NCBI GenBank assembly: GCA_004764695.1
Contig: SMSO01000034.1
Location: 186,001 to 250,000 of the forward strand
Length of the DNA: 64,000 nt
Origin: Schizochytrium sp. TIO01
Taxonomy: Eukaryota > Protista > Bigyra: Labyrinthulomycetes
Direction of reading: 5' to 3'
Positions within the stretch are counted from its first letter, which is position 1; the number at the start of each line of letters is the position of its first letter. Under the pieces are notes generated by a model that ran no database searches, was not told the origin of the DNA, and worked only from the letters and a program-made list of their open reading frames with translations. Of the stretch, positions 11,186 through 62,694 are shown one piece after another. Position numbers and translations under genes: made by a program.

Positions 11186-12553
11186 TCATTCATTGATTCT
11201 CCCTCCCTCCCCCTTGAACTCATTATTTAATCCTCTTCTACTTCGCGCATCTTTCCAGTGGGATTCTGTTTCGGTTGCTTTCCATTGGAGGTTCGCGTAG
11301 AACTGATCTTGATCCTTCACAAACACGAAGGTAAAGAACTCGGTGAAACCATCAATCGTTTTCTCGGCTTTTGTACCTTCTTTCATGTAAAAGGAAAGCG
11401 TCTCACAATCAATGGGTTCAAACCCAGTGACTTTGACCCAAGTTCTCACTCGATTCTCCCCAGCGTGGTCAGTAGCAGTAACATTGTCATTGGGACTGAA
11501 ATCGGGCGCAGGTTCGATCATGATCTGAGGAAACTGGTTGCGTCGACCGTCGAACATGTGACGCATCCCCACCGACAAGGCTAAGCGATTATTGTCGTCG
11601 TCCTCGATGCCCACAGCCGCCACAGACGTCTTGTGAACTAGGTGTGCACAATCCACCATCCCATCTCGAATGCAAATTGGGATCTCAATTGATTGGAACA
11701 TGGCTAAGTCCCCATCAGGTTCCACAGCGGTGTACACTGAGCTATCGCTGTCGTCAGAACACAGAGAGCCTGGCTCATCATCCGAATGATAGTCCCAGCT
11801 GCGAATGTTCTGGAAATTGGCGACACTAACGATTTCAGGGGAACTCAGCTCAATGTTGTCAATATTGTATCCGAGACTATCCGACATGACCTCATTGGAA
11901 AACAGAGCAGCATCTCGAAGGGTAGTGAAGATAATCTCGAAGGTCAAGTCCATGGGTGGGTTGCCTCCTTCGTATCGAATAGCTCTTCTATGCGGTGAAG
12001 CGTCCGTATCTTCGGTCACCTCCGCAAACCCAGCGTTGTTGGCTACCGCGGAGTACACGTAGTGACGCACGCCTTTGGCATTCTTACTATCTTTGAGAGT
12101 ACCACAAACCTTGAAGAAACGCTCGGTTTTGACCTTTCTCGACCTTACCTCGGCCACGATCCCCCGCTGTACTCCGCTTTCATTTAATCTGCTACTTGTT
12201 TCGTTGCGCAGCGCAATCGAATACTGACTAAGCATATCGCGGTTCCGTACAAGGGAATCGAAATACCCCGTTGCCGACCTATATTTTTCCCGTTGGAAAG
12301 CACTGAGGTTGTCGAAGGAAGCACCGTCCGTTTCATCCAAATGATCGATCTTGGCCTCTATGTCAGCGATACGTGCCTCAACGCTCTCGAGCTTTTCTTT
12401 AAGCTGCTGTACAGCTTGATCCATTGCGTCTAGTTTAGCCAACTCGAGGGCTTCTTCGTCCCCTTCCTCAACTGTTGAAAATCGTATGCGGCCACCGCTG
12501 CCTCCGCCACCGCCGCTGGTTTCTTTTCCATTACGAGGGAGGAAGGAAGCCAT
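11186..12553 (-). CDS. Crinkler (CRN)-type protein: N-terminal coiled-coil header plus C-terminal HNH-like nuclease module
   Basis: FQSIE...DCAHLV...DDDNNRLALS...HMFDG...P matches the pattern of oomycete CRN C-terminal HNH-like domains. There is no LFLAK motif and no signal peptide. Confidence 0.7.
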   Translation of the reverse strand: MASFLPRNGKETSGGGGGSGGRIRFSTVEEGDEEALELAKLDAMDQAVQQLKEKLESVEARIADIEAKIDHLDETDGASFDNLSAFQREKYRSATGYFDSLVRNRDMLSQYSIALRNETSSRLNESGVQRGIVAEVRSRKVKTERFFKVCGTLKDSKNAKGVRHYVYSAVANNAGFAEVTEDTDASPHRRAIRYEGGNPPMDLTFEIIFTTLRDAALFSNEVMSDSLGYNIDNIELSSPEIVSVANFQNIRSWDYHSDDEPGSLCSDDSDSSVYTAVEPDGDLAMFQSIEIPICIRDGMVDCAHLVHKTSVAAVGIEDDDNNRLALSVGMRHMFDGRRNQFPQIMIEPAPDFSPNDNVTATDHAGENRVRTWVKVTGFEPIDCETLSFYMKEGTKAEKTIDGFTEFFTFVFVKDQDQFYANLQWKATETESHWKDARSRRGLNNEFKGEGGRINE

Positions 12554-13121
12554 TTTCTTTCACTCGGATGGACTGTTGCTCTGCTGCACCTGCCGGATTT
12601 GCTTCGAGCTATCATGCCCTAGTGATACGGAACTGCCTGAGTCAGGTGCACGGCAGTAGTTCCGTATCAAAATAAACTGGATGCTGCCCTGGCGCGGAAA
12701 CAGCAGCGGCACAAGACGCACGGTACTGCACAGGCGCAGCTGGAACGAGAGGGCGGTGGTTCTGCCCGCCCCCACTCTTACATCCGCTCCGTTATCTCTC
12801 TCTGTGTTACGAAGAAAAGAGAGAAAGACTAGAGATTGAAGAGCGAGAAGATGGAGGATCGATCGCTCCCAACTCAGAATCACGCAGTCGGCTAGCCTTT
12901 CTCTGCAGTCGCTCTCACCTCAAGAAAGCAGAAGTGGCAGCGGCGGTCCCACTCTGGGAGCTAAGGCAGAGATACCACGACGATGACAGGGGGATACTCA
13001 AAGAGTTGCTAGAGAAGTTCAACCGAAAATACATACACCCACAAAGGAACCTCGCCTTCAAAGAAAACACCTGGGGAGCGCGTGGAATATTTCGTCATCC
13101 TACCAAACGACCAACGCTACA

Positions 13122-14210
13122 TTGATCTTTTTTAAGCGCCTTAAGCGGGAGGAGTTGAAGAATTCAACGGGGGGGCGTAATCGGTGCTATGATAGCTTTT
13201 CAAAGTTGTTGAACCGAAGCAGCTTTTCTAAATCGCAGAAAGCTAGCAGCGAGCAGCGCGCTTCAGCGCTTTCGTACACACCGAAGCCTTTTACCAAGGA
13301 AGAAGAGAATGCTCTGGTGTTGATTATGCGAGAAGAGGTGCCGCATGATACAGAGTGGTATTATATACAAAGAAGCCACGATCGCTGTATTGCTTGGACA
13401 GAGGTTTCAAAGCGCTTCGATGAGATTACAGGCAGCTGCGATCGGCCCGAGAGTTCACTCCAAACCAAGTGGAATACTGTACTGCGATGCAAATTTAGCG
13501 AAGACCTGAAATTGGGGGAGCTTGTACGCAAGCACGCCATAGCCAGCGAAGGCCAGGGCTACAGAAATTACAAAAAAAAATCTGAAGTGGATTGGGGGGA
13601 AGTTCTTAGAGATTATAAGGATGATTTATCGAATCCTACAATTGTCAAAAGGCGCGTTCTTCGCCTTGGTTTGGTGCGTAAGAAGGAGGCAAGTAAAAGT
13701 CTGGGCAGGCCTCTCGTGCGACCGAAGCCCGTTGCGATTTATTCTGATCGACTGAGCGCCACCGGCTTGAGCGACATTCGTCTGAAGAATCGTTATTCGA
13801 AGGTGGAGTACGCAAGGATCTTTGAGGGCAATGCATACAGTTTCATTTTCAACTTGCATTCCCGTCAGGATTCGACGAACCCTTGTTACGATTTGCTAGC
13901 GCCTGTGTTCACGCATTTAAAGACTGAATTAGAGCCTAAGAGGGAACCGATAGATCCGCAAGACACTTCATTTCTTTTCACTCTTCATTTGAACGAATGG
14001 AAGGCTGTAAAAGTTTGCCTGGAGAACTATGTTTTCACAGCGGAGCGCCATAGAAAGCTCTTTAAACGATGCCTTATTAATTGGCTCTTTCCTGGTTCTA
14101 GGCCGCAGAAACTATGTTCTCATCACTTCATCCAACAGCATCTTATAACCAATGCGAGAGGAAAGAAGTTTCATTGTATAATAGCCAACGCTTGCATAAT
14201 TTTATCGTAA
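13122..14210 (+). CDS. Myb/SANT-like DNA-binding domain ORF (5' end unclear; possible pseudogene or spliced gene)
   Basis: PFTKEEENALV...IAWTEVSKRF...RPESSLQTKW is followed by a second degenerate repeat (FSEDLKLGELVRKH...VDWGEV). No in-frame ATG precedes the Myb motif. An upstream frame (12934-13125) overlaps the start. Confidence 0.55.
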   Translation: MIFFKRLKREELKNSTGGRNRCYDSFSKLLNRSSFSKSQKASSEQRASALSYTPKPFTKEEENALVLIMREEVPHDTEWYYIQRSHDRCIAWTEVSKRFDEITGSCDRPESSLQTKWNTVLRCKFSEDLKLGELVRKHAIASEGQGYRNYKKKSEVDWGEVLRDYKDDLSNPTIVKRRVLRLGLVRKKEASKSLGRPLVRPKPVAIYSDRLSATGLSDIRLKNRYSKVEYARIFEGNAYSFIFNLHSRQDSTNPCYDLLAPVFTHLKTELEPKREPIDPQDTSFLFTLHLNEWKAVKVCLENYVFTAERHRKLFKRCLINWLFPGSRPQKLCSHHFIQQHLITNARGKKFHCIIANACIILS

Positions 14211-14482
14211 AAACTTAGTTTTGAAGGATACTAAAGATAACGTATCTATGTATTATCACGTAAATCTCAACGTTTCTTTTAGTTTGTTAAGTTGAAACTG
14301 GCACTCGATCCCATTCTCACTTGAGACAACCGTCGATATAGCATACGGGCAATTCATTAATTTGATTCAGTTTCAAGGTGAACGAAGAATGTATTCAACA
14401 AATTTTCTCAAATAATCTTTGTCTTTCTTTAATACAATGGTCAATTAAGGTGGCAAATCGTTCGTCGCGTCTCTTGAAGAGT

Positions 14483-14821
14483 TTAGTTCTGCTTGTACTC
14501 GAGCTTGGCGTCGGACGGGGTGATGCCAAGAATCTCGCGGTTGTTAGCACCAAAGAACGTCTTCCACGGGCCCTTGGACGGCTTCATGTCCATGTGGGCG
14601 GTCTTCCAGCTGCCTACGGAGAGCGCAAAGACGATGCAGCCAACGAGAGGCCAGACCTCGGGGGCCTTGAAGAACATCATCTTCTCGCGAACGGCAGTGG
14701 GAGTCTGGATGAGGAACTTGGAGTGGCCGCCATGGGACTGGCCAGCCTCAGGGAACTTGATCTGCTTTGCCTCAGTGGAGAGCATGCGGCGTGCAGCAGC
14801 GCGTGCGGTGGAGGCCATCAT
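14483..14821 (-). CDS. NDUFA4/B12D-like protein, array copy 2
   Basis: The protein is identical to copy 1. Confidence 0.7.
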   Translation of the reverse strand: MMASTARAAARRMLSTEAKQIKFPEAGQSHGGHSKFLIQTPTAVREKMMFFKAPEVWPLVGCIVFALSVGSWKTAHMDMKPSKGPWKTFFGANNREILGITPSDAKLEYKQN

Positions 14822-16378
14822 TTTTGCTTGGTGAGTTTGTAAGAGTCTAAAGACTTGACTAACAGCGGCTTGTATTGCCTTCGGTTGGAATGTTTTGGTT
14901 TTGGTTTTGGTTTTGGAGTTTCGGGTTTGCTTCAAAGGCATCGCGAGGTTAAGACTCCCTACTCCTAATATCACTTAAGGACTCTTATCCGCATTGATTA
15001 ACTTGTATCAAATTATAAACGTGCAACTTTCTTAGCGTTATAATGTAATGCAGAAGTGGAAAGCAGCTGTTCTTGGAAGGCCATGGGAACGAACCGAGAT
15101 TCCCATTGCCAGAGCTATTTATCTATCTATCAAGCTAGCTACCCAGCTAGAGACGCCACGCTTACTTATATTACATTTCGCCCAACTCCATGAGTTCGGG
15201 ACGCGAGCGACTTTCTGTCTGTCCAGTTGAGCAGGCAGAGGATTGCTCGGAAACGTCCGGGCGGCACGTGAAGAATCGTTCCCGCCCCGCCCCACAGCTG
15301 CCGAGCTCAGCTTGTTTCTGAACACGTTTTAGAGTCGTAGGTCTGGGCACTGCGGGGGCGCTGAGGGGCGCCCCAGGTTGGCTCTGCTTGTTTCTGCGGA
15401 CGCTTGCTTGCCTTGAAAAGCCGCATCGTAGCGGCTTTAGATACATCGTGGTGCTCATAGAACCTTTTAGCAGTTGGTAGGATACTTATCCTTCCTATCG
15501 AAAAAGGGACTGCGCAAAGGCTTCAGATAGATTCCGGGGTCACTGGAGTCGAACGCATAAGATTCGAATCATCTTTATATTGGTTTGGTGCTCTATTTTG
15601 TGAATATGGCCAAATGCAATCAGCAGGAGGTTTTATCGAAAGGATTGAATATGTAAAATGTCGAGGATTTCAAGGCTAAATGCTACTCTCAAATATAGGC
15701 ACGGCAACCAAGAGACTCCATTCGCACAGATTTTCAATCATTCTTAGCAAAGTGTTGGGCCACGGGCCTGGTGATACAGTATTTGAGTCAAGATTAGAAT
15801 CCTCAGCAGCATCATGTATTATGCCAAAGGCTTACAATTTATCACCAAAGCTTTATCTTCAAGATTAAACGTGCAGAAGGCAACGGCTTTATTGGGAGCT
15901 TCGTGGTTCATTTAGATCGTGACAGAAGTCCGAATCGCAGCATAGATTTTTAATTGTTTGGGAGGGTACAATGTCGTAGTCAAATTTGTCCGATGAAAAA
16001 TTCCATGTCTTTTATAATATTAAAACAATAAATTCATTTTTTTAAAAACTAAATGTAGCACCAGCACTCAGCTATTGTACTATTGTAGGGCATGAAAGCT
16101 TTCGACACAGGTTGACAAAGATTAAAAGAGCTTTAGGGCATGCAAGCATCAGCATTTGTGGTTGAAGTCCCATCATTCCAATTTAGCTCTGCTGTAATTC
16201 ATCCATGCAATTGCCGTAAGTGATTCAATCTTTATACAAGGCCAAGTCGACTGTTTGTAGTATTAGTTTCAAGGTGAACGAAGAATGTGTTCAACAAATT
16301 TTCTCAAATAATCTTTGTCTTTCTTTAATACAATGGTCAATTAAGGTGGCAAATCGTTCGTCGCGTCTCTTGAAGAGT

Positions 16379-16717
16379 CTAGTTCTGCTTGTACTCGAGC
16401 TTGGCGTCGGACGGGGTGATGCCAAGAATCTCGCGGTTGTTAGCACCAAAGAACGTCTTCCACGGGCCCTTGGACGGCTTCATGTCCATGTGGGCGGTCT
16501 TCCAGCTGCCTACGGAGAGCGCAAAGACGATGCAGCCAACGAGAGGCCAGACCTCGGGGGCCTTGAAGAACATCATCTTCTCGCGAACGGCAGTGGGAGT
16601 CTGGATGAGAAACTTGGAGTGGCCGCCATGGGACTGGCCAGCCTCAGGGAACTTGATCTGCTTTGCCTCAGTGGAGAGCATGCGGCGTGCAGCAGCGCGG
16701 GCGGTGGAAGCCATCAT
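16379..16717 (-). CDS. NDUFA4/B12D-like protein, array copy 3
   Basis: The protein is identical to copy 1. An in-frame stop upstream limits this ORF to the 112-aa product and supports the MMAST start. Confidence 0.7.
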   Translation of the reverse strand: MMASTARAAARRMLSTEAKQIKFPEAGQSHGGHSKFLIQTPTAVREKMMFFKAPEVWPLVGCIVFALSVGSWKTAHMDMKPSKGPWKTFFGANNREILGITPSDAKLEYKQN

Positions 16718-18344
16718 TTTTGCTTGATGAGTTTGTACGTGTCTAAAGACTTGACTGACAGCGGCTTGTGTTGCCTTTGATTGCGGTGTTTTGGTTTTGC
16801 TTTTGGAGTTGCAGGTTTGCTACTCGAGCTTTGCCATCTCCAGGCTCGACTCTTAACGGCATATAGTAAGTTCTATTGACCACCTTGAATTTGTATCTAA
16901 TCAGAAAAGTGCAACCTCCACCTCCATAGTGTTCCCAATTGTGAAGGGCCCTTCAAGCTAAGCTTTCCTTTTTCGCAGTGTCTCGAGGACGTTTCTGGCA
17001 AGATGCAGCAGATATGCGTCAGTTCGATACGCAAGGTGCACTGCTGGTGGCCTCGGACGGCTTGGCAATTGCTCAGAAACGTCCCAGCGCAGTAGGTCCC
17101 TTCGATTCCTTCATAATTGACTGCCGAGGCAGAATATTTTTCCATCACTAGAACTCGCCTATGCACAGTTTCTCGGCCCGCACTGTGGGTGAAAGCCATC
17201 GAAGTGCGGGAAAGTCTAGCTTTCTTTGCGCTCTGTTCCGCGGACGTTTCTTCCCTTATCGACCGCCCTTTGGCTTCTTTCTCTTCTTTCCACTTTCGAA
17301 GTGCATTGTCTCGAGCAAGATCCGATTATATATGGCGTGTACTTGGTGAGACCAAGGAGTTGGCATCAGCCAATCGCAAGCTTTGGTGATGCAGACAAGG
17401 CAGCATGTCCACTCATGTAGATTCGAGGTTTTTGCGCAGTGCGTGATGGACGAGGTAGTAATCGGTGCTGGAGACGAGAAATTTTGACATCAGAGGACTT
17501 CTAACTTTTTTCTTTTTTTTTTTCTAAACTTACTTGACCTCGAGAGCAGGTTTTAGCTTCAAGAGGTTTTACATAGTAGTTGTATGAAATGGGGGAAAGG
17601 GGATCCTCAGAACCCACTGGCAATGATCCGTCTTGAATTTTACGCGAAATTACAGTTGTCACTGTTCACCGCACTGCTGTCTTGTAGTACGTTAAAGATC
17701 TGTAGAAGCTTGGTCTAATTTGTAATTGGCATAAGGGTCAGCACATTTGTATGCAGATGTTTTCGAAAGAATGCTGTATCACTGCATGGTACGCTCGCGT
17801 TATGTACTATTTGTGTGAGAAACTTGGTCAGATTTAAACTTCGTCTTTACTTCAACAATCGTCAAGGTTTTTCAGAGCTTAGCACTGCGAATTTGCAACT
17901 GTTAAGAAATTGTATTTTTATTTCGTCTTCCGTTGACTAATGTACTTCATAATCGTCAAAGTTTTTCAGAAATTAGCACTGCGAATTTGCAACTGTTAGG
18001 AAATTCGGTTTTAATGAATGAGGTGAATGATTCTATTGTCCGAACTCTCAAAATGTATCAATTCAAGTTTTAGGAGTGCTGCTCTATTCCGGGGGTTGAC
18101 TAAAATCAGACTTAGTCTTTCTACTTTGTAAACTTAAAGCGCGCAACAACTTAACTAGCAACTCTTCAAAGGATAAACGATGGTCTGCTGAGTTTTCTCA
18201 TTAGTCAACTTCTGAACCATCCAGTAGGCACGATGAAAGATCTGGCAAATCAATATATCTTGAATATTTCAAATATGTTTATCTTTATACATTAGTCAAT
18301 TTGCAGGTAACTATAACAACGTGATGAATTGAAAGATTGTGCGT

Positions 18345-18683
18345 CTAGTTCTGCTTGTACTCGAGCTTGGCGTCGGACGGGGTGATGCCAAGAATCTCGC
18401 GGTTGTTAGCTCCAAAGAACGTCTTCCATGGGCCCTTGGACGGCTTCATGTCCATGTGGGCGGTCTTCCAGCTGCCTACGGAGAGAGCAAAGACGATGCA
18501 GCCAACGAGAGGCCAGACCTCGGGGGCCTTGAAGAACATCATCTTCTCGCGAACGGCAGTGGGAGTCTGGATGAGAAACTTGGAGTGGCCGCCATGGGAC
18601 TGGCCAGCCTCAGGGAACTTGATCTGCTTTGCCTCAGTGGAGAGCATGCGGCGTGCAGCAGCGCGTGCGGTGGAGGCCATCAT
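18345..18683 (-). CDS. NDUFA4/B12D-like protein, array copy 4
   Basis: The protein is identical to copy 1. Confidence 0.7.
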   Translation of the reverse strand: MMASTARAAARRMLSTEAKQIKFPEAGQSHGGHSKFLIQTPTAVREKMMFFKAPEVWPLVGCIVFALSVGSWKTAHMDMKPSKGPWKTFFGANNREILGITPSDAKLEYKQN

Positions 18684-20918
18684 TTTTGCTTGGTGAGTTT
18701 GTAAGTGTCTAAAGACTTGACTGACAGCGGCTTGTGTTGCCTTTGATTGCGGTGTTTTGGTTTTGGTTTTGGAGTTGCGGGTTTGCTCCAAAGGCATCGC
18801 CAGGGCAAGACTTCCTACTCCTAGCATCGCCTAGCAACTTCTATTCCCGCTGGTAAACTTGTATTGAAAAGTAAAAGTGCAACTTCTCCCAGAGGTACCT
18901 TCTAAGCAGAGCATGATAAAAAGACAGCGCAAACAGTATGTTTATAAATAAAAATAACTCGTGCTCGCTACCCGAACCGGTGTCCATGATTGGCTGAGGA
19001 CGCACGCACGCGGCTCAAGTTTTCATAGTTTTCATACAGCGTCAGGGGCTTCGGGCATCGCGGACGGGGCCTGCTCAGAAACGTCCCAGCCCTCGCGTGC
19101 ATCCATTTTGATCTTGAACGAGGGTGCGCTGCATCGACGACGATGATAATTTTGGGGTCTCCTTCTTTTGAGAGTCTTGAAAGAAATGGCTCGCACTGTG
19201 GGAGCGAACTAGGCATTTCGCGGCTGCGGGGAACTTCTGCTTTCGCGCTGTTTTGTTTCTAGGGACGCTTCTCTACTCCGGCTTCTAACTTTTCCCCGCA
19301 GCGCCCTTCATACTACTGAGAGCCATAGCGAGTCCCTGTGTCTTTTTATTTTATTATTTTGTTATTCTATTATTTTAATTTAATTAATTAATTTAAAAAT
19401 AAAACTCATGAGTGCGCTAAGGTTGAGAATGGGACGGATAGATGGGACGAACTTGAGCTGGATATTACGAGCAGATCTAGTGGAACAGACGCACCGGCAT
19501 GCCAAGGCTTTTAGCAGAGCGGATCCTTCGCTGCGCAGCGCAGCGCTTGGATGGTTTAGACAAAGTTCTGAGGCGGAATTATTGCTGAGAAGAGACTTGG
19601 CGTATTGACCAAACAGCACTGCTGGTTACATGCCCAGGATGACGTATTCGAACCACCGAGATCTCAAGTAGGCTCCCTCAATGCATGAAATGCACCGGCT
19701 CAGCTATTGCCAACTATGGTGATGGACTGGGTAAGTTTTAAAATCAAGAGGACACCTCCGCATTTGTTGCAGTTTTAGATTCAATGCGACTTGAGAGTCT
19801 TTATTTGACAAAGGGCCATAACACCGACCAAAAGACTCCGAAGAGTCTATATGAAATTTGCCGTACTTACCATTCAACGCTGCCAAGAAGAGAGTACCCG
19901 GGTATAGGTGAAAGCTGTTGTATGAAATTTAGAAAGCATGGGATAACGATGATAAAGTTTTATTTTTGAAAGTCAAGGTTGCATTGAGTCTAGTCAATTA
20001 CATTTGGTATCAATCAAATATGTGAATTCTGCGTGTGATATTTTTTTACAGGAAACTTCGATGCAGCATTACTAGTATTGGTAAAGATTGTCTCTTCAAG
20101 GATTACCTATCATTGTGGTTGCTCCGTAATTAATGCTCATACTGCATGTATGGAATTTCAAAATAAAATAGAAAAAGGGTCAATCTATTTACTTGGCAAA
20201 GGAGGAGTCTTTAGACATACCTATAAAACGTATATCAGCACCAATGATTCGTCGGATCAAAAGGAGTCCTAGTTTAATGAAATCACGAGACAGCTTTCGA
20301 ATCAAAGAATGTATTTAAATGCTCTGTAGGCTTATCTAAACGCGGTTTTGTTTGCTTGCTTGCAAAGCCATAGCCTAATGCTATGCCCATTTTCTTTGTT
20401 CAGTAGGGACTTTGTACATGCTGCAAAGCTGGGCTAAAACCATGATTGTTGAAACGTTTCTCCAGAATTCCTGGTTTCAGGACTGTTTGGTCTTGAGCTT
20501 TACCTATATGTATATATATATATATACATTAAGGTGGCAGTTTGCCAGAGATAAGGTGGTGGCAAAATCCTTCGTCGTAGCTTTCATATTAAGTCAGTGT
20601 CTAGCACATAGATTGTGCCATGCATCATTTGCCACTGATTCGTTAATGGGTTAATCCGTGTGCTGTTGATCACCTTACTAACACCAAGTCTAAATGCTGT
20701 CTGTGCAAGTTACAATCTCTCGATTATCGTCTTTGATTACTGTCGCCCCCATCGAGATTTATGTAGCCGCCTCTTTCGCTAACACTGCCAGAAACACTGT
20801 GTCACCTGCAACTTGAAAAGCAAAGGATTCGTTGTAAGAATAGAGAAAAAAGTATTCCAAATAAGTTGATCTTTAATACAATGGTCAATTAGGGTGGCAA
20901 ATCGTCACGCCTCTGGGT

Positions 20919-21257
20919 CTAGTTCTGCTTGTACTCGAGCTTGGCGTCGGACGGGGTGATGCCAAGAATCTCGCGGTTGTTAGCTCCAAAGAACGTCTTC
21001 CACGGGCCCTTGGACGGCTTCATGTCCATGTGGGCGGTCTTCCAGCTGCCTACGGAGAGCGCAAAGACGATGCAGCCAACGAGAGGCCAGACCTCGGGGG
21101 CCTTGAAGAACATCATCTTCTCGCGAACGGCAGTGGGAGTCTGGATGAGAAACTTGGAGTGGCCGCCATGGGACTGGCCAGCCTCAGGGAACTTGATCTG
21201 CTTTGCCTCAGTGGAGAGCATGCGGCGTGCAGCAGCGCGTGCGGTGGAGGCCATCAT
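20919..21257 (-). CDS. NDUFA4/B12D-like protein, array copy 5
   Basis: The protein is identical to copy 1. Confidence 0.7.
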   Translation of the reverse strand: MMASTARAAARRMLSTEAKQIKFPEAGQSHGGHSKFLIQTPTAVREKMMFFKAPEVWPLVGCIVFALSVGSWKTAHMDMKPSKGPWKTFFGANNREILGITPSDAKLEYKQN

Positions 21258-23429
21258 TTTTGCTTGGTGAGTTTGTACGTGTCTAAAGACTTGACTGACA
21301 GCGGCTTGTGTTGCCTTTGATTGCGGTGTTTTGGTTTTGGTTTTGCTTTTGGAGTTTCGGGTTTGCTTCAAAGGCATCGCGAGGTTAGGCCTTCTGCTCC
21401 TAGCATCGCTTAAGGGCTCCTATATCTTTCCCTGAGTTCCTGTGCAACTCTAAAAACGAAACTTCTACTATCTCCACATTAGTGCCTATATAGTCCTACC
21501 GCCAGTTTCCTTCTAATTCCAAAGGTCTTTTCCATCTAACTTTTTATTTTAATCTTCAAACTATAAAAAATAAAACATCGCAGGCCCTCTATATATATGA
21601 TATATATATATTTTTTTTAGAAAAAGTCATTTAAAAAACCACACAAATAAAAGCAATCATAAAATACTATATAGCGAGAAGACAGCGAATCTCAAGGCAG
21701 GTCAGCGAACGAAAGGCCTCGCGGTAAGGCGGAACAGCGCATTCTCTGCGGACACCCTCAGACGGACGGACGCGTGATCTGCGAGCACTTCGGTTGTGTG
21801 CGCGCAGATGCGCAGATAACCAGAGCTCTGGAGCGAGCGGCCTCGGACGGCTTGCGCGCCGTGTGTTTGTTTGCTGAGAACTTCAGAAACGTCCCAACGC
21901 CGGCTGCGGGCCCACAGCTTGGCGCCGCCGCGACTGGCTCTAGGTTCTCGGCACCCACACTGTGGGGTGGTGTATGTCCTCCCCCTTTGGCGGCGGTGGG
22001 AAGATATCTCGTGCTCTCGTTCCCGCGGACGCTTCCCTCTAAACATATGTATTTACGTATGTTTGTATGGTACAGAGAGAGCATTCACTCGCTGCTGTAG
22101 ATCGCAGCGAGTGCCGCGTTGAAGTTGGTTGCTCAGGATGTTTGCGCTTTCATGGAATCGAGGTCGCTTCGCGAGGGACGCGTGGTTGTTTGGGGTCAAG
22201 AGTTTGATTTGATTTGATCTGATCTGATTTTATTCGATTCGATTCGATTCGATTCGATTCGACCGTTTGTTTGTTCTGTTTGTGAAGGCTCGGTTGAGGT
22301 TTTAGGCTGTACGAACGAAGACGGGCGCAGTGGAATTCCAAGAGGTTGCATGAAGATTATGTCCGCGAGGCACCTACGGAGAAGTGCTCCAGCTTTGGAA
22401 TTTATATATAACTAACTCTGCCAGGGTCTTGTGAAACCCAGGTTTTAGGCTTAATGCTCCAAGCTGAGCGGGAGCCCAACATGTTTTATGTCCAATGAAT
22501 GATCTGAGTTTGAAGTGCTATGCAGGTGTCTTTACACAATCTAGGTTCAAGCTCTAAAGCCTGTTTGGCCACGTGGGGGTGTTATTGTAGATTTGGCATC
22601 TCTACAAATTTGTCCGGTGGAATTCCCCATGCATGCGTGTGACCAAATTTCTGCAAGCAGCCCAATCTAGGCACCAGCAACAGCGATATACTTTACAATA
22701 GAAAGAGTTTTGCGAATGTCTTAGAGACCACTTGAAGAAGAAGGAACTCAACAAAAAAGTCGAGCCATAGAGCCCAGACTCATGCAGACTTCGAACGCAC
22801 GTTCAATTTTGATATTCATCATCATTCACTCATATTTTAACATTTTGTGTATATCTTCAAGGGGGTGCAACGAAACGCCCTTGCATCCAAGGTTCTGTAA
22901 GTAATTACAATTAGTCAGATTATGTCCACCTACTATGAGTTTGATTTGTTTGATATCTTGCAAGCGAGGGTGTGGAATCAATAAAAAGGAGCAAGCTTTA
23001 ACATATAAATTTAACTGTACTAAAATCCACTTGCAAGAGGGACCAGAGTGGAAAGCATCTCAACTTTATTGATGTACTGTGCTTGCTGGAAACTCCTAAT
23101 GCTGTATATCACCATTCGGCTAGGCAAACTAAGCAGGTTGGTCCCTCGACATTGCTGTCAAAGAAAACTCGAACAGTGCAGACTATTCGTAAGTGCTTGT
23201 TCAAATGGTCTCGCGTCTGCTCAAGACGTTTGTTTGTCCTCCATATATCGGCATTGCACGACGCCCCGGAACAAGAAGACTTTCGCGTCGAAGCGTGGAT
23301 GGACCAAGCTCAAGAGATATCAACAGGTTCTGTAAAACATCGCAAACAAGTTTATCATTTATTAATACAGGTGAGTACGTTGTGGCGGCGTTGGAGCTAG
23401 GATGACGAGATAATGTTGCACGTGTTCAA

Positions 23430-23768
23430 TTAGTTCTTCTTGTACTCGAGCTTGGCGTCAGACGGGGTGATGCCGAGAATCTCGCGGTTGTTGGCACCAA
23501 AGAACGTCTTCCATGGGCCCTTGGACGGCTTCATGTCCATGTGGGCGGTCTTCCAGCTGCCTACGGAGAGAGCAAAGACGATGCAGCCAACGAGAGGCCA
23601 GACCTCGGGGGCCTTGAAGAACATCATCTTCTCGCGAACGGCAGTGGGGGTCTGGATGAGAAACTTGGAGTGGCCGCCATGGGACTGGCCAGCCTCAGGG
23701 AACTTGATCTGCTTTGCCTCAGTGGAGAGCATGCGGCGTGCAGCAGCGCGTGCGGTGGAGGCCATCAT
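23430..23768 (-). CDS. NDUFA4/B12D-like protein, array copy 6
   Basis: It differs from copy 1 only at the penultimate residue (YKKN vs YKQN). Confidence 0.7.
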   Translation of the reverse strand: MMASTARAAARRMLSTEAKQIKFPEAGQSHGGHSKFLIQTPTAVREKMMFFKAPEVWPLVGCIVFALSVGSWKTAHMDMKPSKGPWKTFFGANNREILGITPSDAKLEYKKN

Positions 23769-25090: not shown

Positions 25091-25355
25091 TTGAAGAAAA
25101 CCATTGAAGCCCACGATGCAAGATATATCTCTTGACAGTCTTAAATTGAAGAGAATCATTGAAGCCCACGATGCAAGATATATCTCTTGGCAGTCTTAAA
25201 TTGAAGAGAATCATTGAAGCCCACGATGCAAGATATATCTCTTGGCAGTCTTAAATTGAAGAGAATCATTGAAGCCCACGATGCAAGATATATCTCTTGG
25301 CAGTCTTAAATTGAAGAGAATCATTGAAGCCCACGATGCAAGATATATATCTTGA
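25091..25355. repeat. 55-bp minisatellite, ~4.8 copies
   Basis: The unit CATTGAAGCCCACGATGCAAGATATATCTCTTGGCAGTCTTAAATTGAAGAGAAT starts at 25102, 25157, 25212, 25267 and 25322. Confidence 0.95.
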
Positions 25356-25577
25356 TAATCTTCTTACGTTGGAGAAATATCGAACGAAGCATTTGCAAAT
25401 ATATAACCCCCATTCAAGAAATTAAGGGACACTGTACTACCAAGCCGCCAAACGTAGCAAACCCGTTTCTTAGCAAGAAGAAATACATAAAAGCCTGAAT
25501 GTTAGGATGGCACGATTCTAAATCCAATTATTTTTATACAAATGTGTGTGCGTTGTACGTACGTTGAGTGGGGGTAT

Positions 25578-50588: not shown

Positions 50589-50786
50589 TGGTCCTTGTTT
50601 TTATGTTTAATGTCTTTGTATGTGATGAATGGTTTGTCGTGGTGGTAGAAATAGGATATAGCTTCTTCATTAGACAGAGCGTTTCTGCGTTGAATGACGA
50701 CATGTTCATTTTTCTGACGGAACAGATTCTGAATGAATTTTCGAATTTTCTCTGATTGGAAGAACATAATTAAGGTTTTGCATGAA

Positions 50787-51818: not shown

Positions 51819-51912
51819 TTATTTTTTTAGCTGGTTGAAATTGTTTGCACCAATGTTATTTTGCGCTGGCAATATATAGTAAAAGCAATAAGATTACTTA
51901 TTGTTAGATAGA

Positions 51913-54912: not shown

Positions 54913-54936
54913 ATGTTTTATTTTTAATTGAGGTTT

Positions 54937-57084
54937 TCATTTTGGAGTTGTTCTTTCCCTCTCCAACGCAAGTCGAAGTCTAGCAATCTCTCGACTAGCG
55001 CTTAGTGCGAAGTCTTCCTCACTCATTTCTGACTTGCCAACGGACATGCCGAAGTCGATGATGACAGGCCTTTGAGTTTCCTTGTTGTATAGGATATTAC
55101 GGGTCGCCACATCACCATGCAGTACACCATGGGAGTGAATGTCATCGAGAGCATCCACTGCCTTTTCCACAAAGTCATCGGTGATGTCTTCAGGTCTTAA
55201 AGGTTCGCCAGAATACTTTGTTCCGAGGCCGTAAAGAAATCTTTCATCGAAAACGCCACAATCGATGAACACTGGGATGTGTATTCCTTGCAGCGGTTCT
55301 AATTGCTTGTAAATTTCAGCTTCATTGTCAAGTTCGTGCATCTGATCTGCTTGCTTAACAAGGTCCAATACCTTCACCACGTTGTCGCTCTTATCATCTC
55401 CTGCTTCGTGGAAGTTCAAACGAAATACTGCCCCTGTGCGACCGGGTGAAAGCGCGGTGCACCCAGCCTTGCGTAGCTTGACTAGTTCGACCGCTTCACC
55501 ATCCTTTGTATATTTTGCACCATACTTATTTAGTGTCGAAGAAGGTGGTCGTCCATTTGGTGACGAAGTCCGTGGTGATACATTTTTCGGCCTCTTTGGG
55601 TCCAGTCCGCTATTACATTCAGGTGGTAGATCTTTCCTACTAATCGGATCATCCGATTTGCAGGGAACCATCATAGAATATCCATAACCTCGGAAATCCA
55701 TAACTTGTTCATCAGCAGCGAGAAGAATAGCGAGTGCAACGAGCTGCAACGTACTGATTTTCTTATTTTCAGTATCACCCTCTTGATCCCATAAAATAGC
55801 TTCTGTGATAAGCAGATGTCCCCGCCCGTCTCTAATGAAAACATGAGTGTGTATATAGTTCGTGTAAATACCAACCAAAACCTCATTCAAAACCATGTAG
55901 TTGTAAAGTTGACGAATGACCGAATGGTCTTCATGCCGCTGTGAACCACAGAGAGGATTTAGGCATTCTTTATTACAATAATCATTAGCGAGTTTAGCAG
56001 TGGTGGGAAACCCAGGACCTTTGAATTCGCCCATGATCAACGGTTTGCGGTTACCGTCTTCTGACTTACAATTGATAGCAAAGTCTGCGCGACCTACTAG
56101 TCCTCCAGTCACAAGGTTTCCATACAAAGAGAGATCTTTAGGAATGGAATTGTTTTCAGTGGACGTCTGATTGAGTGCATGTGTTAGACATAGGATGGCA
56201 TTTGTAAACGCTTTGTCGACTGAACTTTCATTGTTAAGTTTTGCGAAGAGACCATAATTTGCAAATGTATTGACAAAGTCGACTGTAGTCTCGACGTTAT
56301 TCAGGATATCAATGTAGCCATGGTCTTCACAATAATTCCAGAAATTTGATGGAGAAAAATTATCCACCTGCAAGGGTGATACAGGGTATGATATTAAGTT
56401 CGCAAGACTTGTCTTGTTTGCGGTTAATTCACCCTCCTGTTTCCAGTTTGGTAGATGTACTTTGGTGGCATCCATCATCTTCTTCGGTTCCGGAGATGAC
56501 TGTAACCGTTCTCTTAGCGTTGAGATGTCTTTATCGGTAGAGGTTATAAGATCATGCACTTTTGCAAGGCGGGCACTATCTTCAAGAATTTGTTGCTTGG
56601 TCAGTCTTAAATCCTCTTCTTTTTCGATAATTTTTTTGGACAAATTCACGCAAAGGGCAAGAGTATCGTCCTGTATATCATCGGGCGAGTACCCGTACCT
56701 CTTCCGGAACGATGTTGACTTGATCTCACCACGACAGAAAGCATCGAGAAAGTCGTAGTCGTCCTCATGTCCTAGCTTTTCTTTAATTTTCTTCTCGATT
56801 TGCTTGATTTCTTGCGAAAGCTTGGCTTTTTCATCCTTGAGGTCCTCAAGTGCTCGATCCATACGCTCGTACTCCTCAGTCTTTTTTGCTTGCAAAGTTA
56901 AAGCCCGTTGCAAGAAGGATTCATCATCTGTTGGGAGTGTGCTTACGCGCCTGAAAGTGGTGCGCCTGTTTGGATCGTTTGTGAACATCTGAATTGATGA
57001 GGGGCGAGATTCACGTCTACTAGCGGCACTCCTTGCGAAATTGGAGGCTGCATTTCTAAGTCCCTTGATAGTAGCACCTATCAT
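54937..57084 (-). CDS. Crinkler-type protein: coiled-coil header, PD-(D/E)XK REase-like domain, minimal protein kinase
   Basis: REase-like motifs GRADF...IMGEFKGP and RQLYNYM...VGIYTNY. Kinase motifs GRTGAVF, VVKVLD, ELDNEAEIYKQLEPLQGIHIP, HGVLHGDVATRNIL and IIDFG. Confidence 0.8.
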   Translation of the reverse strand: MIGATIKGLRNAASNFARSAASRRESRPSSIQMFTNDPNRRTTFRRVSTLPTDDESFLQRALTLQAKKTEEYERMDRALEDLKDEKAKLSQEIKQIEKKIKEKLGHEDDYDFLDAFCRGEIKSTSFRKRYGYSPDDIQDDTLALCVNLSKKIIEKEEDLRLTKQQILEDSARLAKVHDLITSTDKDISTLRERLQSSPEPKKMMDATKVHLPNWKQEGELTANKTSLANLISYPVSPLQVDNFSPSNFWNYCEDHGYIDILNNVETTVDFVNTFANYGLFAKLNNESSVDKAFTNAILCLTHALNQTSTENNSIPKDLSLYGNLVTGGLVGRADFAINCKSEDGNRKPLIMGEFKGPGFPTTAKLANDYCNKECLNPLCGSQRHEDHSVIRQLYNYMVLNEVLVGIYTNYIHTHVFIRDGRGHLLITEAILWDQEGDTENKKISTLQLVALAILLAADEQVMDFRGYGYSMMVPCKSDDPISRKDLPPECNSGLDPKRPKNVSPRTSSPNGRPPSSTLNKYGAKYTKDGEAVELVKLRKAGCTALSPGRTGAVFRLNFHEAGDDKSDNVVKVLDLVKQADQMHELDNEAEIYKQLEPLQGIHIPVFIDCGVFDERFLYGLGTKYSGEPLRPEDITDDFVEKAVDALDDIHSHGVLHGDVATRNILYNKETQRPVIIDFGMSVGKSEMSEEDFALSASREIARLRLALERERTTPK

Positions 57085-57965
57085 GGTGTTCGTTCGAACG
57101 ATTGGGTTTTGCTGCTCTTGAGAACTAGGTTTGGATGCTTCCTCTATTGTTTATACTTGATTTACTAATGAATGGTACTAGTAGATATTCCTACTTATTT
57201 TTTGTTTCTTACACACCCTCAAATCAAACCCATATCTTCTTCTAATGACTCATACACTGCACGAGGGATAAACTATAAAACAAGCTATATAGGTGCAATA
57301 GTATGCTAAGTATTCTTTTTTAAAAAATACTACTCAATAAGTGCTAGTATTTTGCGAAACCCATAATAATCTGCGAATTAAAGTCTGCTGTGCTCGTTTG
57401 CATAACTTTGATGCCGTGGCTGGTGGCGTGGCCGCAGCGTCCACGAATCTATTTCTCTCCTCGCACGCGCCGTATGCCGTGTGCGCGCACGCACACGCGC
57501 TCATTCTACCCATCTCTCCCTCCACTGTTCGATCACGCAAGTCAAACGTTGTGATGATTCGATGCAAGTGGGTAAGATCGATACCCCCGCTCGCCAAGGC
57601 CAAGGACAACTTTCCATGCATCGTTTGACTGCGTAAGTCGAAAGTTGTGCAGGTTGTGCTGGCTCGTGCCGGTAGGTAGGAGAAGAGAAGATCGGTCCTC
57701 TCAGTAGACCTTGATCAAGCGTAAGTCGCGAGTTGTGCAGGCAGTGCTAAGCAGGAGAGGAGAATTGAAGATCGGCCCTCTCAGTAGCCCTTGATCGATC
57801 GTTTGATTGAGTTGTGCAGGCAGTGTTGTTTGAGACTTGAAGAACGATCCTCTGACTCGCCAGTGGTAGAGGTTTGACTACTTATCTTTCGATCGCCTAA
57901 GTCGAGAGTTGTGCAGTTTGTGGGATGAGAGAAGATCGATAGATAGATACCCTCCCTCGCTCACT
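56560..57965. repeat. Segmental direct repeat copy A (5' part of the CRN-like gene plus ~900 bp upstream); copy B at ~62165-63570
   Basis: Long near-identical stretches, e.g. 57100-57290 vs 62725-62910 and 57500-57720 vs 63140-63370. Confidence 0.9.
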
Positions 57966-58059
57966 AACTCTCAGTAGACCTTGATCATTAAATCGCGTAA
58001 GTCAAAAGTTGTGCAGAGGGGTAGAAGAAGAAAGGGAGAAGAGAAGATACGAGAGACAT

Positions 58060-58880
58060 CATGGGACGAGTTGATGAACCAAAATTTGACGTTCAGAAAG
58101 TAACTTTGACAAGATGGATCAGTCGGTTCAAGATTCGATTTATCGAATTTACCTAGTAAAAGCGATAAAGCGCCTGATTTGATTTATAACATTGTTACTT
58201 TCATTGAAGGTGTAGAACCAGTATATACGCCAGACGGATTGCCGACACACAATTTCTTAAAATATGCTTTGGAATTTGCTCTACAGTACAAACCCCGCTA
58301 CATTGATTGTGTCAACGAACTTGTGGATCTGGAGGGCTTTACCTTTTGGTTATCTGAACAGAACGCATCAGAGCTTTCTACTCGCGGAGTGATTCTTTTG
58401 AAACTGGTTCTGGTAATCAAAAGATAAAAACATTGAAAGTCTGGGGAAGTTGAGGACGGAGATGTCTAAACTGTTCATGGAGGTTGATTTTCCTTCTGGG
58501 ATAATTAAGAATGTACAACTGCGTGAGGTTCCTAATTATGTTGCGGAGCGCTTCTTGCGCAATGTATTTCCATCAACTACGGACTACCGACGCCATTATT
58601 TATACCACGAATAAACCTTTCTACCGATTCAAAAGAACCTTCTGTCAGAGGGGACATCACATACTCTAAGTCGGTGTCAAAAGTCGGCAAACGATACGGT
58701 CTTTCAAGGGTCCCGGTGGATCTGGCAAGACCCGTCTAGGTGTTGAGTTGGCAAAACATGGAGTGAACTATGTCGATGAAGATAAAAAGAAAGCTTTATC
58801 TGCGTTTATTCAGATGAATAAACACCTTTGTTTAGACTCCTCGTACTTTCGTCAAGAATATAAATTCGGGGCTCGATGAA
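58060..58880 (+). pseudogene. Fragmented ORF remnants ending in a P-loop NTPase fragment
   Basis: A Walker A GPGGSGKT lies at 58709-58732 in the frame KGPGGSGKTRLGVELAKHGVNYVDED. The upstream frames are broken by stops and frameshifts. Confidence 0.45.
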
Positions 58881-59293: not shown

Positions 59294-59920
59294 TCATGTT
59301 TTTGTTTTAATTGAGAGAATGTCTTGCTCTGCCAGAGTATATTTTGCAAAAGGGTTGACTTCCTTCGCAAGTACGATGGTGGGTAATATTGTTTGCGCAT
59401 AGAACATGATATATGCCATGGCGTCACCGAGGTGGTCTTTTTGAACTGCTTTTCTGAAGGCTGGTAAAGTGTGTAAAAGTTTTGAAGTGATTTCCACGAC
59501 CTGTACGCGCCTTTCAACTTTAGATTGTGACATTTTAAAATATGCATGCATGGAGCGTGGTGAGATCAATCGGACAAAAGATGATCCTTTCCTTGCCCCA
59601 AATCTCTGCTTTAGGAAAACATGGAGAAGCTGTTCAATGTCTTTGTGAGTACTTGTGATGGGCTACGCTTCGATGATGACTTGATCTACTTTTTGAAACC
59701 ATGGTCGGAGCAGCTCCACAAAATGGTGAACGAGATGTGCGCCTTTGCGATCCTTTTCTTCGAAAGGGCATTCTTTGGGTTTTTTACATGTAAGATTGCG
59801 AAGGTCTTGCATGTGCGCATAGACGGGCGTGATTTCAAACGTTTCATTGTCAATGTCTGCAAACGCACAGGCAAGATGGCTGAATCCCACATCTATTCCA
59901 ACGACTCGAGTAAGGTTCAT
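59294..59920 (-). pseudogene. RuvC/poxvirus-A22-like Holliday junction resolvase with one in-frame TAG
   Basis: ORFs 59663-59920 and 59294-59569 are in the same frame and joined by open sequence after TAG 59663-59665: VVGIDVG...VIIEA*PITSTHKDIEQLL...ISPRSMHAYF...KDHLGDAM. This matches the RuvC-family D, E and C-terminal D motifs. Confidence 0.8.
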
Positions 59921-59964
59921 GTTTACTATTTTTTTTTTTTATAAAAATGATAATTTCGTTTATG

Positions 59965-60249: not shown

Positions 60250-61132
60250 ATGAGATTGAGGAGTAGTCGCGTTTATGTATTAGATGAAACTTTAAAAAAA
60301 CAATCTAAAAGAAATGAAGTAGTAGTGCATGGCAATAATGCTAAGACTAGAGAACATGTAGTAGATGAAACTTTAAAAAAACAATCTAAAAGAAATGAAG
60401 TAGTAGTGCATGGCAATAATGCTGAGACTAGAGAACATGTAGTAGATGAAACTTTAAAAAAACAATCTAAAAGAAAGAAAAGAAATAAAGTGGTAGATCC
60501 TGTTATTCGTGTATGTGGCAACGCTAAGACTATTTATAAATGTTCTCTGAGTGGTAGAGAATATTGGGTGGATAAGAACCGAGCTGGAGAAAACAGAAGA
60601 ATGTATTGTGGGCATGGACGAAAACCTAACCGGTGTGTAGATTGCGATGGCACGTATATTTGTATCCACAAGAGGCGCCGTACTTACTGCTTTATTTGTG
60701 AGCCTGATTCCAAAAACCTTTGCGAACGTAAGTGTGGGCGTCTTTTATCGAATCGTAGACTTTTCCGTAGGATTCGCATTTGTTGGACGTGTGAAAAGAG
60801 AGAGGAGCGTCATATGAGACTAGAAAATGAGTGGAACGAGCGTTTTCATTCTTGGGGATTTCACCCTTCGAGCCATGATCGCATCATCAAAGATAGTGCA
60901 TGTAAGGTAGTAAACCGTCGGCGTGCTGACTTTGCTTTTTTCAGATAATGACTTACCCTATTATATTGTGGTCGAATGCGATGAAGAAAGTCACAGTGGT
61001 TATGACATAGCATGTGAAATGAAAAGATTGCAGGAAATTCATGATCAGTTAATTGGTAATGGAAGAAGTGTGAAGCCTTTGGTGATTATCCGTTTCAACC
61101 CGTACCCATCAAGTTGTAATAATGGTAAATGA
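60250..61132 (+). pseudogene. Large-DNA-virus-type Cys/His-rich PD-(D/E)XK-like endonuclease, frameshifted near 60940
   Basis: CxHxRxxxxCxxC repeats are followed by RRADF, then in another frame YIVVECDEESHSGYDIACEMKRL...PLVIIRFNP. The shift falls at a T run. The N-terminus contains an 81-bp tandem repeat (60281, 60362, 60443). Confidence 0.7.
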
Positions 61133-61158
61133 ATCACCGCACCATCCTTTGAAAGTTC

Positions 61159-62694
61159 TTAGCCGAGCTTCTTTACGTTCACAGAATAAGTATTTCCGTG
61201 CTTGTCGTTTTCCAAGTTATTACTGCCTCTGCAATCAGATGGTAGAATGATACGTTCTTCACTTATCTCAGGGCCACCTAAACAGGGAACCAATATGTTA
61301 TTTTCAATTTCACTGAAGTTCATCTCGCTTGTATCCGCTGCGAGCAAGATAGCAAGTGCGACAAGTTGCATCGAACTGAGTTTGCCGCGAGCGATATCGC
61401 CAACTTCTTCAGCCCGAACAGAGTTCGTGATCATTAGATTTCCTTCACAGTCCCTGATAAAAACACAAGTCACTTTGTAGTTCGAGTAGACGCCAACCAG
61501 TAGACCATTCAAAAACATGTAGTTGTATAGTTGACGAACAACTGAAAACTTTTTATGACGGTCTGATCCACATCCAGTACAGCCATGATCACAATAAGTC
61601 TCACTGAGGTTGTCGTAGGAGTAATTCTTACCAGGACCTTTGAACTCACCTACGATCAACGGAATATGGGTATCGTTTACTGTCTTAGCAGCAAAACAAA
61701 AGTCTGCTCTACCCTCTACTTTTTCCTGACCAGACGTATAGATGGAGACCTTATAAGGGACTTTTTCGTTGGATTCTTGAGTCATGGCTTTTGTTACAAC
61801 ACGCATAACTTGCTGAAATGCGTCCGTGACAGTTCCTTCGTTTAAGAATTTTACCGTATCACTCACATCCTCAAAGGCATCTTTGAAGTTGACGGTAGAT
61901 TGCAGTTCATTCAGAATATCAATGTACCCTTTCTCGTTACAGTAGTCCACGAAAGACTTTACTAACAAAGACCTGACCTTCGCAGGCGAAGTGGGGTAAT
62001 TATGGAGGTTCGAGATATCTGTGTTGCTTTGTCGTATTTTGGGTGAATCCTGAACATTTGGTAGACGATGACTGGTGACCGACAGAAAATGTTGCGGTTC
62101 CGTACGAGAAATCAAATCACTTAACCTCCTCACTTCAGCTTGATGATCATCGATTATGTCCTGCGTTTTTGCAAGGCGTTGTTCTTTGGCAAGAATTTGT
62201 TGCTCTTTCACTTCTAACGACTTTTCTTTTTCGATAATTTTTTTGGACAAATTCACGCAAACGGCAAGAGTAGCGTCCTGTATATCATCGGGCGAGTACC
62301 CGTACCTCCTCTGGAACAATTTTGACTTGATCTCACCACGACAGAAAGCATCGAGAAAATTGTAGTTATCGAGTCCTAATTTGTCGGTGATTTCCTCTTT
62401 CAGATCCTCGATTTCTTGCAAAAGCTTGGCTTTTTCAGCCTCGAGGTTCTCAAGTTTTCGATCCATACGCTTGTTCTCCTCAGCCTTTTCTGCACGCAAA
62501 GTTCTAGCGTCGGCCAAGAGGGAAGCTAATTCCTGATTCAAGACTACGTGTTTCATAGGAGTGGGTCTGTCTGAATCGGTTGTGAACATCTGAATTGATG
62601 AGAGGCGGGGTTCTCGTCTTCTAGCGGCATTCCTTGTCTGGTTGGTGATCTTGGAGGCTGCATTTCTAACTACCTTGATAGTAGCACCTATCAT
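61159..62694 (-). CDS. Crinkler-type paralog: coiled-coil header and REase-like domain, no kinase (possibly 3'-truncated)
   Basis: The header is highly similar to that of 54937-57084. Motifs GRADF...IVGEFKGP and RQLYNYMFLNGLLVGVYSNY are present. The ORF ends shortly after the REase region. Confidence 0.75.
   Translation of the reverse strand: MIGATIKVVRNAASKITNQTRNAARRREPRLSSIQMFTTDSDRPTPMKHVVLNQELASLLADARTLRAEKAEENKRMDRKLENLEAEKAKLLQEIEDLKEEITDKLGLDNYNFLDAFCRGEIKSKLFQRRYGYSPDDIQDATLAVCVNLSKKIIEKEKSLEVKEQQILAKEQRLAKTQDIIDDHQAEVRRLSDLISRTEPQHFLSVTSHRLPNVQDSPKIRQSNTDISNLHNYPTSPAKVRSLLVKSFVDYCNEKGYIDILNELQSTVNFKDAFEDVSDTVKFLNEGTVTDAFQQVMRVVTKAMTQESNEKVPYKVSIYTSGQEKVEGRADFCFAAKTVNDTHIPLIVGEFKGPGKNYSYDNLSETYCDHGCTGCGSDRHKKFSVVRQLYNYMFLNGLLVGVYSNYKVTCVFIRDCEGNLMITNSVRAEEVGDIARGKLSSMQLVALAILLAADTSEMNFSEIENNILVPCLGGPEISEERIILPSDCRGSNNLENDKHGNTYSVNVKKLG

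Follow-up and report, generated by a model that had tools for sequence, protein, structure and literature searches.

Two described systems are the main guides to the genes reported here. In a review of Crinkler/RHS-type (CR) proteins (PMC5289972), a restriction endonuclease-like (REase) domain with a kinase accounts for about one-sixth of the CR C-termini, and helical headers are known, including from free-living eukaryotes. The model given there holds that the REase is toxic and that the kinase regulates it; the headers, which lack true signal peptides, are proposed to serve in delivery. The other system is Spok3, with a coiled coil, a PD-(D/E)xK nuclease carrying a QxxxY motif, a Cys cluster and a kinase. 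According to the sections of that study used here (PMC6660238), killing depends on the nuclease lysine, mutation of the kinase or the Cys site gives a toxic protein, and the wild type rescues in trans. The present analysis concerns three genes, g1 (11186-12553), g2 (54937-57084) and g3 (61159-62694), all open reading frames (ORFs) on the minus strand of a eukaryotic 64,000-nucleotide stretch of contig SMSO01000034.1 (the window). On the evidence, they look like CR-type genes for a nuclease or a nuclease-kinase, whose helical N-termini are not of the LFLAK kind and lack a signal peptide. We give an even chance to the reading in which g2 and g3 are one likely CR-type nuclease-kinase family with a recently copied 5' region and g1 is probably a member of a different, HNH-like family.

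The mosaic of g2 and g3

54937..57084, minus strand: g2, 715 amino acids (aa), with a lead, a coiled-coil hairpin, a PD-(D/E)xK-like domain, a second Cys site and a Rio/Bud32-like kinase
56497..56931, minus strand: g2 header, aa 52-196; in the AlphaFold model, helix 52-104, knob 112-130 and helix 139-196
55714..56235, minus strand: g2 REase-like domain, aa 284-457, with E286, D334, E353-x-K355 and Q392-xxx-Y396
54940..55533, minus strand: g2 kinase, short, aa 518-715, with K571, E588, D658, N663 and D677
61159..62694, minus strand: g3, 511 aa, with a g2-family header and an REase-like domain (E286, D331, E350-x-K352), ending just before the kinase
61105..61158, minus strand: remnant of the pre-kinase segment past the g3 stop (tblastn of g2 extends to 61105), abutting virus-like DNA
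56552..57967, no strand: recently common block, copy 1, comprising the g2 upstream flank and codons 1-177; aligns to copy 2
62159..63572, no strand: recently common block, copy 2, comprising the g3 upstream flank and header; aligns to copy 1

The two copies of the common block were 81.5% identical over 1484 columns, a similarity that begins about 880 bp upstream and ends at codon 177, and in the nearest 600 bp of the upstream flank identity reached 96% (575/599). Within identical codons, third positions differed in 7 of 105 cases across aa 1-177 vs 48 of 120 across aa 178-490 (Fisher p 2.7e-9), and the Nei-Gojobori synonymous divergence (dS) between g2 and g3 was 0.22 for the header and 0.99 for the nuclease part. 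This low divergence of header and flank, set against the high divergence of the nuclease, indicates that the 5' part was shared recently and that the nucleases split long ago. The upstream region and header were thus recently copied, while the nuclease modules are long diverged, with the break at about g2 codon 177-180, where the hairpin ends. Comparison with the relative P0030 gave header identities of 39% (g2) and 44% (g3) vs 67% between g2 and g3, and nuclease core identities of 60% (g2) and 55% (g3) vs 53% between the two. A tree of seven rows over aa 215-490, from which rows with too little of that region were left out, placed g2, g3, P0009 and P0010 in one clade with no resolved order inside it. 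The nuclease core of g2 and g3 is under purifying selection, with a nonsynonymous divergence (dN) of 0.42 vs a dS of 0.86. Positive selection on the header was considered and rejected, as the interval of the difference between nonsynonymous and synonymous proportions (pN-pS) includes zero.

We infer that the mosaic arose by recombination or 5' gene conversion, in a Crinkler-like exchange of headers within one family. This retains only part of the swappable header proposed in an earlier note on this DNA: exchange is seen between g2 and g3, but not between g1 and either of them, and a reusable header spanning both HNH and REase-kinase modules is unsupported. In runs X1 and X11, contigs on g2 have loose ends that carry g3-type header letters, which means that the second header is no duplicate of the first created by assembly. 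Short, patchy contig matches suggest further paralogues of g2 and g3. The upstream flank (57350-58050 and 63000-63570) contains internal repeats of about 110 bp and has many variant contigs in four runs; it may be a separate element.

The same note had taken g3 for a different module, an REase only, and this can be ruled out. With 48% identity over 499 aa, g2 and g3 are one family, and the likeness to g2 continues for about 17 codons beyond the g3 stop. Read through that stop (taken as X), g3 resembles g2 aa 518-541 with a score reached by 0 of 5000 shuffles. This g2-like pre-kinase sequence makes g3 a truncated nuclease-kinase gene, lying beside virus-like debris, and not a third module. In g2, every catalytic motif checked is intact, in nuclease and kinase alike. 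Its REase motifs fall on the expected strands and helices (motif table and AlphaFold model), a Cys/His insert follows the ExK motif, and the second Cys site is found near 475-490. Of the proposed REase plus kinase composition of g2, the kinase holds by profile and motifs; the REase is suggested by motifs and predicted secondary structure, and this domain had no match in profile libraries or PDB sequence searches. Whole-model fold searches with g2 gave listings filled by the kinase.

Among 1.84 billion representatives, 14 relatives of g3 were found, all matching inside aa 136-503 and none through the header alone. The kinase was present in 7 of the 9 that were scanned. The kinase-less P0009 and P0030 have lost the motif D and K; P0009 comes from a transcript marked complete, and P0009, P0030 and P0011 also stop before or at the kinase start, so that kinase loss may recur in this family. 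Two full-length relatives, P0010 and P0012, have helical-looking N-termini, and their sharing of either header was rejected (HHalign probability 1.5% or less). As these N-termini match neither header, N-termini of more than one kind are joined to the nuclease-kinase module, which is also the case in CR proteins. A word-indexed search with g2 aa 30-480 retrieved 0 of 7990 candidates; metagenome contigs yielded no g2 relatives, and plasmids no relatives of the REase region.

The g1 protein and the question of a shared header

11186..12553, minus strand: g1, 455 aa, with a disordered lead, an antiparallel coiled-coil hairpin, a ferredoxin-like domain and an HNH-like domain
12134..12466, minus strand: g1 header, aa 30-140; in the AlphaFold model, helix 30-74, knob 78-91 (two short helices) and helix 94-140
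11807..12118, minus strand: g1 ferredoxin-like alpha/beta domain, aa 146-249, from secondary structure and weak Foldseek rows
11216..11656, minus strand: g1 HNH-like domain, aa 300-446, with motifs AHL..H, D.NNRLALS and MFDG

The HNH-like C-terminus attributed to g1 is suggested by its motif set and by weak, below-cut-off matches to Pfam HNH_2 in two of the seven relatives scanned (P0008, E 0.0086; P0006, E 0.032), with none in g1, but the histidine of the last motif is displaced. The family motif H-R-[MF]-F, found in five relatives, reads R-H-M-F in g1, P0001 and P0002, which makes the activity of g1 doubtful; judged from its sequence, the protein may be inactive. The ferredoxin-like domain drew weak Foldseek rows to PII-like and acylphosphatase folds, all with E above 0.001. 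Near-identical g1 proteins occur in transcriptome sets (P0023, P0002 and P0026), P0023 from the marine protist transcriptome set MMETSP0958 being 97% identical to g1. Eight relatives were retained from 7832 candidates, all with the g1 C-terminus, six with the whole hairpin and two 5'-partial; prokaryote genomes contained no relatives of the g1 family. Compared with BFVD, the g1 model had two matches well ahead of all other rows (E 5e-11 and 8e-11): the Feldmannia species virus proteins B5LWM7 and B5LWG2, aligned over about 300 columns with 20-25% identity.

The colinear N-terminal blocks described for the three ORFs do align in the same order, and the N-termini are, as claimed, helical and non-LFLAK without a signal peptide, on which motif scan, hydropathy and AlphaFold agree. 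The LxLFLAK and HVLVxxP motifs are absent from g1, g2, g3 and the six relatives scanned, Pfam Crinkler had no match in the window genes or scanned relatives, and hydropathy over 11 residues peaks at -0.09 (g1), 0.28 (g2) and 0.74 (g3) within the N-terminal 40 aa, showing no hydrophobic N-terminus. As to the further idea that this lineage has a header of its own, alpha-helical CR headers from free-living eukaryotes were already described in the review cited above. One header common to all three genes was not established, the results of BLASTP, HHalign, the PDB background and masking all being weak. We regard the claim of a single new header for all three modules as unproven, with the odds against it.

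At the sequence level, BLASTP gave g1 an E value of 0.63 against g2 and 5.3 against g3, and at the DNA level no similarity was found between the headers or flanks of g1 and those of g2 and g3 (best E 0.14). Aligned locally, g1 aa 20-140 and g2 aa 40-200 scored 71; among 2000 shuffles of each type, 0 (full), 8 (10-residue-window) and 1 (heptad-preserving) reached this value. Against g3 the score was 55, with 17, 97 and 15 shuffles reaching it. A hidden Markov model (HMM) of the header from seven g1-family rows scored the g2 N-terminus such that only 3/500 and 5/500 shuffles beat it, at 7.4 bits for g2 and -0.6 for g3 vs 5.3 and 5.8 for the reversed sequences. HHalign of the g1-family header with a four-row g2-family header beat 100/100 column shuffles under both nulls, with a probability of 6.4% and a score of 22.6 (reversed decoys, 16-18), and with full-length profiles the probability was 0.2%. 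Against the full g1-family profile g2 reached 6.2 bits, and 17 of 177,635 unrelated PDB sequences reached 11.7-16.6, a competence pilin at the top. Because the regions were picked after the match had been seen, the shuffle results are inflated.

Once the coiled coil was removed, the knob alone was reached by 131-318 of 2000 shuffles, which is chance level, and block 1 was marginal, for g2 only. With significance so largely lost after masking, the check proposed in the earlier note goes mostly against the header. The knobs of the two headers differ by about 15 residues in length, and a forced joint header profile found designed coiled coils as its best PDB matches, on block 2. In a whole-model fold search with g1 the listing was filled by the hairpin, which many generic hairpins match. 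It seems likely that g1 stands for an HNH-like family apart from g2 and g3, whose hairpin is its own and whose front end is a generic coiled coil. From these alignments, true homology of the g1 header to that of g2 and g3 appears doubtful.

The fuller alternative is that the three genes share an ancestral helix-knob-helix header, joined to HNH and REase-kinase modules in a lineage-specific effector system. The same predicted plan and block order in g1 and g2, a score for the whole header that 0-8 of 2000 shuffles match, the HHalign score reached by 0 of 100 and the header exchange between g2 and g3 speak for it, as do basic lead motifs in some members of both families: R/K-R/K-x-S/T occurs in P0002, P0005, P0008, g2 and P0012 and not in g1, g3, P0010 or P0020. 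The low HHalign probability, the PDB chains that outscore g2, the knob at chance level and the lack of DNA similarity count against it, as does the finding that no protein among the relatives of g1 and g3 pairs the header of one family with the C-terminus of the other. We judge this alternative somewhat unlikely. A search with the joint header profile was crowded and hit only P0001 and P0009 of 7992 scored, failing to recover several members of the profile itself. In none of the searches did a header come back with a second architecture, which goes weakly against the shared header. Neither header had a usable match in the ESM Atlas, and at metagenome locus L001, which carries a g1-family gene, no neighbouring header gene was seen by eye among nine ORFs of at least 100 aa.

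Mobile and virus-like surroundings

60250..61132, plus strand: Cys-rich virus-like nuclease-type gene, frameshifted (from translation; GC content 0.38), ending tail-to-tail with g3
59297..59920, minus strand: RuvC/A22-like Holliday junction resolvase with one internal stop (phrog_159, E 4.5e-06, first piece)
58110..58876, plus strand: broken P-loop NTPase-like gene (Walker A in translation; Pfam AAA_18, E 0.012)
11139..14368, no strand: extra block of about 3.2 kb with g1 and a Myb-like ORF; spacers 1 and 2 match on both sides
13122..14210, plus strand: Myb/SANT-like ORF, 362 aa from TTG (Pfam Myb_DNA-bind_5, E 0.018, weak), divergent from g1
9566..28264, minus strand: array of eight copies of a B12D/NDUFA4-like gene of 111 aa (sub-threshold Pfam B12D match, E 0.0026), host to the g1 block

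The placement of the genes in mobile or virus-associated DNA is supported, with g1 in an extra block and g3 beside virus-like debris. The colinear neighbouring spacer of the array has 249 bp where the g1 block has 3.2 kb, which makes the block a likely insertion, though its GC content is host-like; no terminal inverted repeat was seen at its edges. At the other locus, the Cys-rich gene on the opposite strand itself has a truncated end where the g3 remnant stops; it is putatively giant-virus Vsr-like, and no library matched it. Thraustochytrid skiaviruses have a resolvase of the A22 type among their core genes (10.64898/2026.07.28.741200), and the Aurantiochytrium limacinum mirusvirus-like elements also include a resolvase gene. 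Searches of viral contigs turned up nothing related to g2, to members of the g1 family, to the resolvase piece or to the Cys-rich gene, and phages held no relatives of the resolvase.

These surroundings raise the alternative that the genes are passengers or decaying remnants of viral or transposon-like DNA, duplicated and partly converted, with no current role in conflict. The match of the g1 model to the Feldmannia proteins, the altered HNH motif of g1 in its extra block, the truncation of g3 beside broken resolvase and nuclease genes and the GC content of 0.36-0.45 from 49 kb onward in the window would all fit. However, all three genes have long open frames, purifying selection acts on the nuclease core, near-identical g1 proteins are present in transcriptome sets, and g2 keeps all its catalytic motifs, so that we regard mere passengers as improbable.

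The P-loop gene lies between g2 and the virus-like pieces, points away from g2 and has a common intergenic region with it. CR proteins often pair P-loop NTPases with REases, and the gene may for this reason be a third CR-type remnant; a six-frame scan gave no header match. Tail-to-tail with g2, across a gap of 24 bp, is a secreted-type M11/M12 metallopeptidase with a C-terminal membrane anchor (51901-54912, plus strand), of which at least two versions were found in contigs of runs X11 and X17. Two orphan ORFs without a Pfam match (50163-51818; GC 0.37-0.38) mark the left edge of the low-GC region. In run X15, only guessed to be RNA, contigs cover g2 and almost none cover 49-54.6 kb, from which no conclusion was drawn.

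The copies of the B12D/NDUFA4-like mitochondrial gene are in dispersed tandem, six of the eight at 98-100% identity, with spacers of 1.6-4.6 kb mostly unrelated to one another, a pattern of concerted evolution of the coding unit and spacer turnover. One spacer contains a 55-bp tandem repeat (25091-25354; 4.8 copies, 98% identity). At 1.5 kb from the array, the ORF at 7081-8064 (minus strand) has PBCV-specific basic adaptor repeats (PF08789, E 1e-09), a giant-virus-type domain, and a 12-bp tandem repeat. Elsewhere in the window, a 1606-aa protein (33315-38135, minus strand) combines a signal-like N-terminus, long TPAASP repeats, EGF, a transmembrane segment, CHAT (caspase-like) and a STAND/NB-ARC-like NTPase, a receptor-like immune architecture. 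An Rfam scan of the window gave no match.

Possible role and comparison with known systems

Since there is no signal peptide, we propose that the g2 and g3 proteins would act inside the producing cell. There, the PD-(D/E)xK-like domain of g2 would cut DNA and, by analogy with Spok3 and the CR model, the Cys site and kinase would restrain it, while the hairpin might oligomerise or localise the protein. Recombination or gene conversion in the common 5' block could bring new variants of the nuclease behind one and the same promoter and header. The g3 protein might be an unguarded nuclease checked by the g2 kinase in trans, or else come from a decaying copy. If an unguarded nuclease is costly, the loss of both the kinase and the catalytic D and K in P0009 would be expected; that g3 keeps its nuclease motifs predicts either rescue by g2 or a recent truncation. 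By analogy we favour an intracellular selfish or antiviral role, with viral DNA, competitors or gene-less sibling cells as candidate targets.

Export is the other direction to consider, the proteins being effectors against prey, competitors or hosts, with the hairpin as a non-classical translocation signal. The delivery proposed for CR headers in the review cited above and the secreted-type metallopeptidase gene next to g2 lend it something; the missing hydrophobic N-terminus and LFLAK-type motif, and the likely host, presumably a thraustochytrid saprotroph, argue the other way, and we rate export very improbable. A broader proposal is a thraustochytrid polymorphic nuclease system, in which one helix-knob-helix header with a basic lead, together with its promoter, would be recombined onto HNH, REase and REase-kinase modules, some of them exchanged with giant viruses; its REase-kinase members would be Spok-like poison-antidote proteins, and g3 a kinase-less poison dependent on its neighbour g2. 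We think this broader proposal unlikely.

Several points weigh against our preferred combination of one g2/g3 nuclease-kinase family and a separate g1 family. The displaced histidine of g1 is a metal ligand of the HNH motif. The REase label for g2 comes from motifs and predicted secondary structure. The motif lysine is changed in P0010 and P0013, in P0010 with the kinase kept, so not all family members need be nucleases. The header has a dN close to its dS (0.27 vs 0.22, interval spanning zero), which fits relaxed constraint as much as diversification, and 5' gene conversion between old neighbours would yield the same mosaic without adaptive meaning. Some shuffle tests (p about 0.001-0.01) do favour kinship of the g1 and g2 headers. 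Finally, kinship with CR and Spok proteins is drawn from architecture and not from sequence comparison.

In the g2/g3 pair the breakpoint of the header exchange is sharp and has been mapped, and the protist that carries the pair is culturable and likely free-living. One gene of the pair has the kinase and the other naturally lacks it, so that a guarding role of the kinase over the nuclease can be tested directly. The predicted fold link of g1 to a brown-algal giant virus suggests that modules move between protists and their viruses. In titles and abstract openings of the literature, no CR-type or Spok-like genes were described in labyrinthulomycetes, although the defining CR paper (Zhang et al. 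2016) and its supplements may already list them.

The gene set is not a strict oomycete Crinkler. Like the CR REase-kinase class (for example CRN8) as characterised in the review cited (PMC5289972), g2 has a header followed by an REase-like domain and a kinase, without a signal peptide, and that class is likewise found with mobile DNA and recombination between header and C-terminus, as in g2 and g3. Unlike in CRN8-type proteins, the g2/g3 header is a coiled-coil hairpin and not the LFLAK ubiquitin-like fold, the g2 nuclease has the Cys/His insert after ExK and no Pfam Crinkler match, and the host is likely free-living. The CR-HNH proteins AeCRN13 and BdCRN13, in the same review, resemble g1 in having HNH-like C-terminal motifs behind a non-enzymatic N-terminal part, a likeness drawn from descriptions and not from sequences, but the g1 header is helical and its last-motif His displaced. 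The two Feldmannia proteins are like g1 in predicted structure and differ in being uncharacterised and shorter (382 and 273 aa). Spok of Podospora, as presented in the sections cited (PMC6660238), has in common with g2 the order of parts (N-terminal coiled coil, PD-(D/E)xK-like domain with QxxxY, Cys site ahead of an atypical short kinase) and a length of about 700 aa, whereas the Cys spacing differs, only two family ligands remain in g2 at the pre-kinase site, and no meiotic drive is known for g2. Taken with these likenesses and differences, the gene set works like, and probably is, a CR-type system with alpha-helical headers, a class already known.

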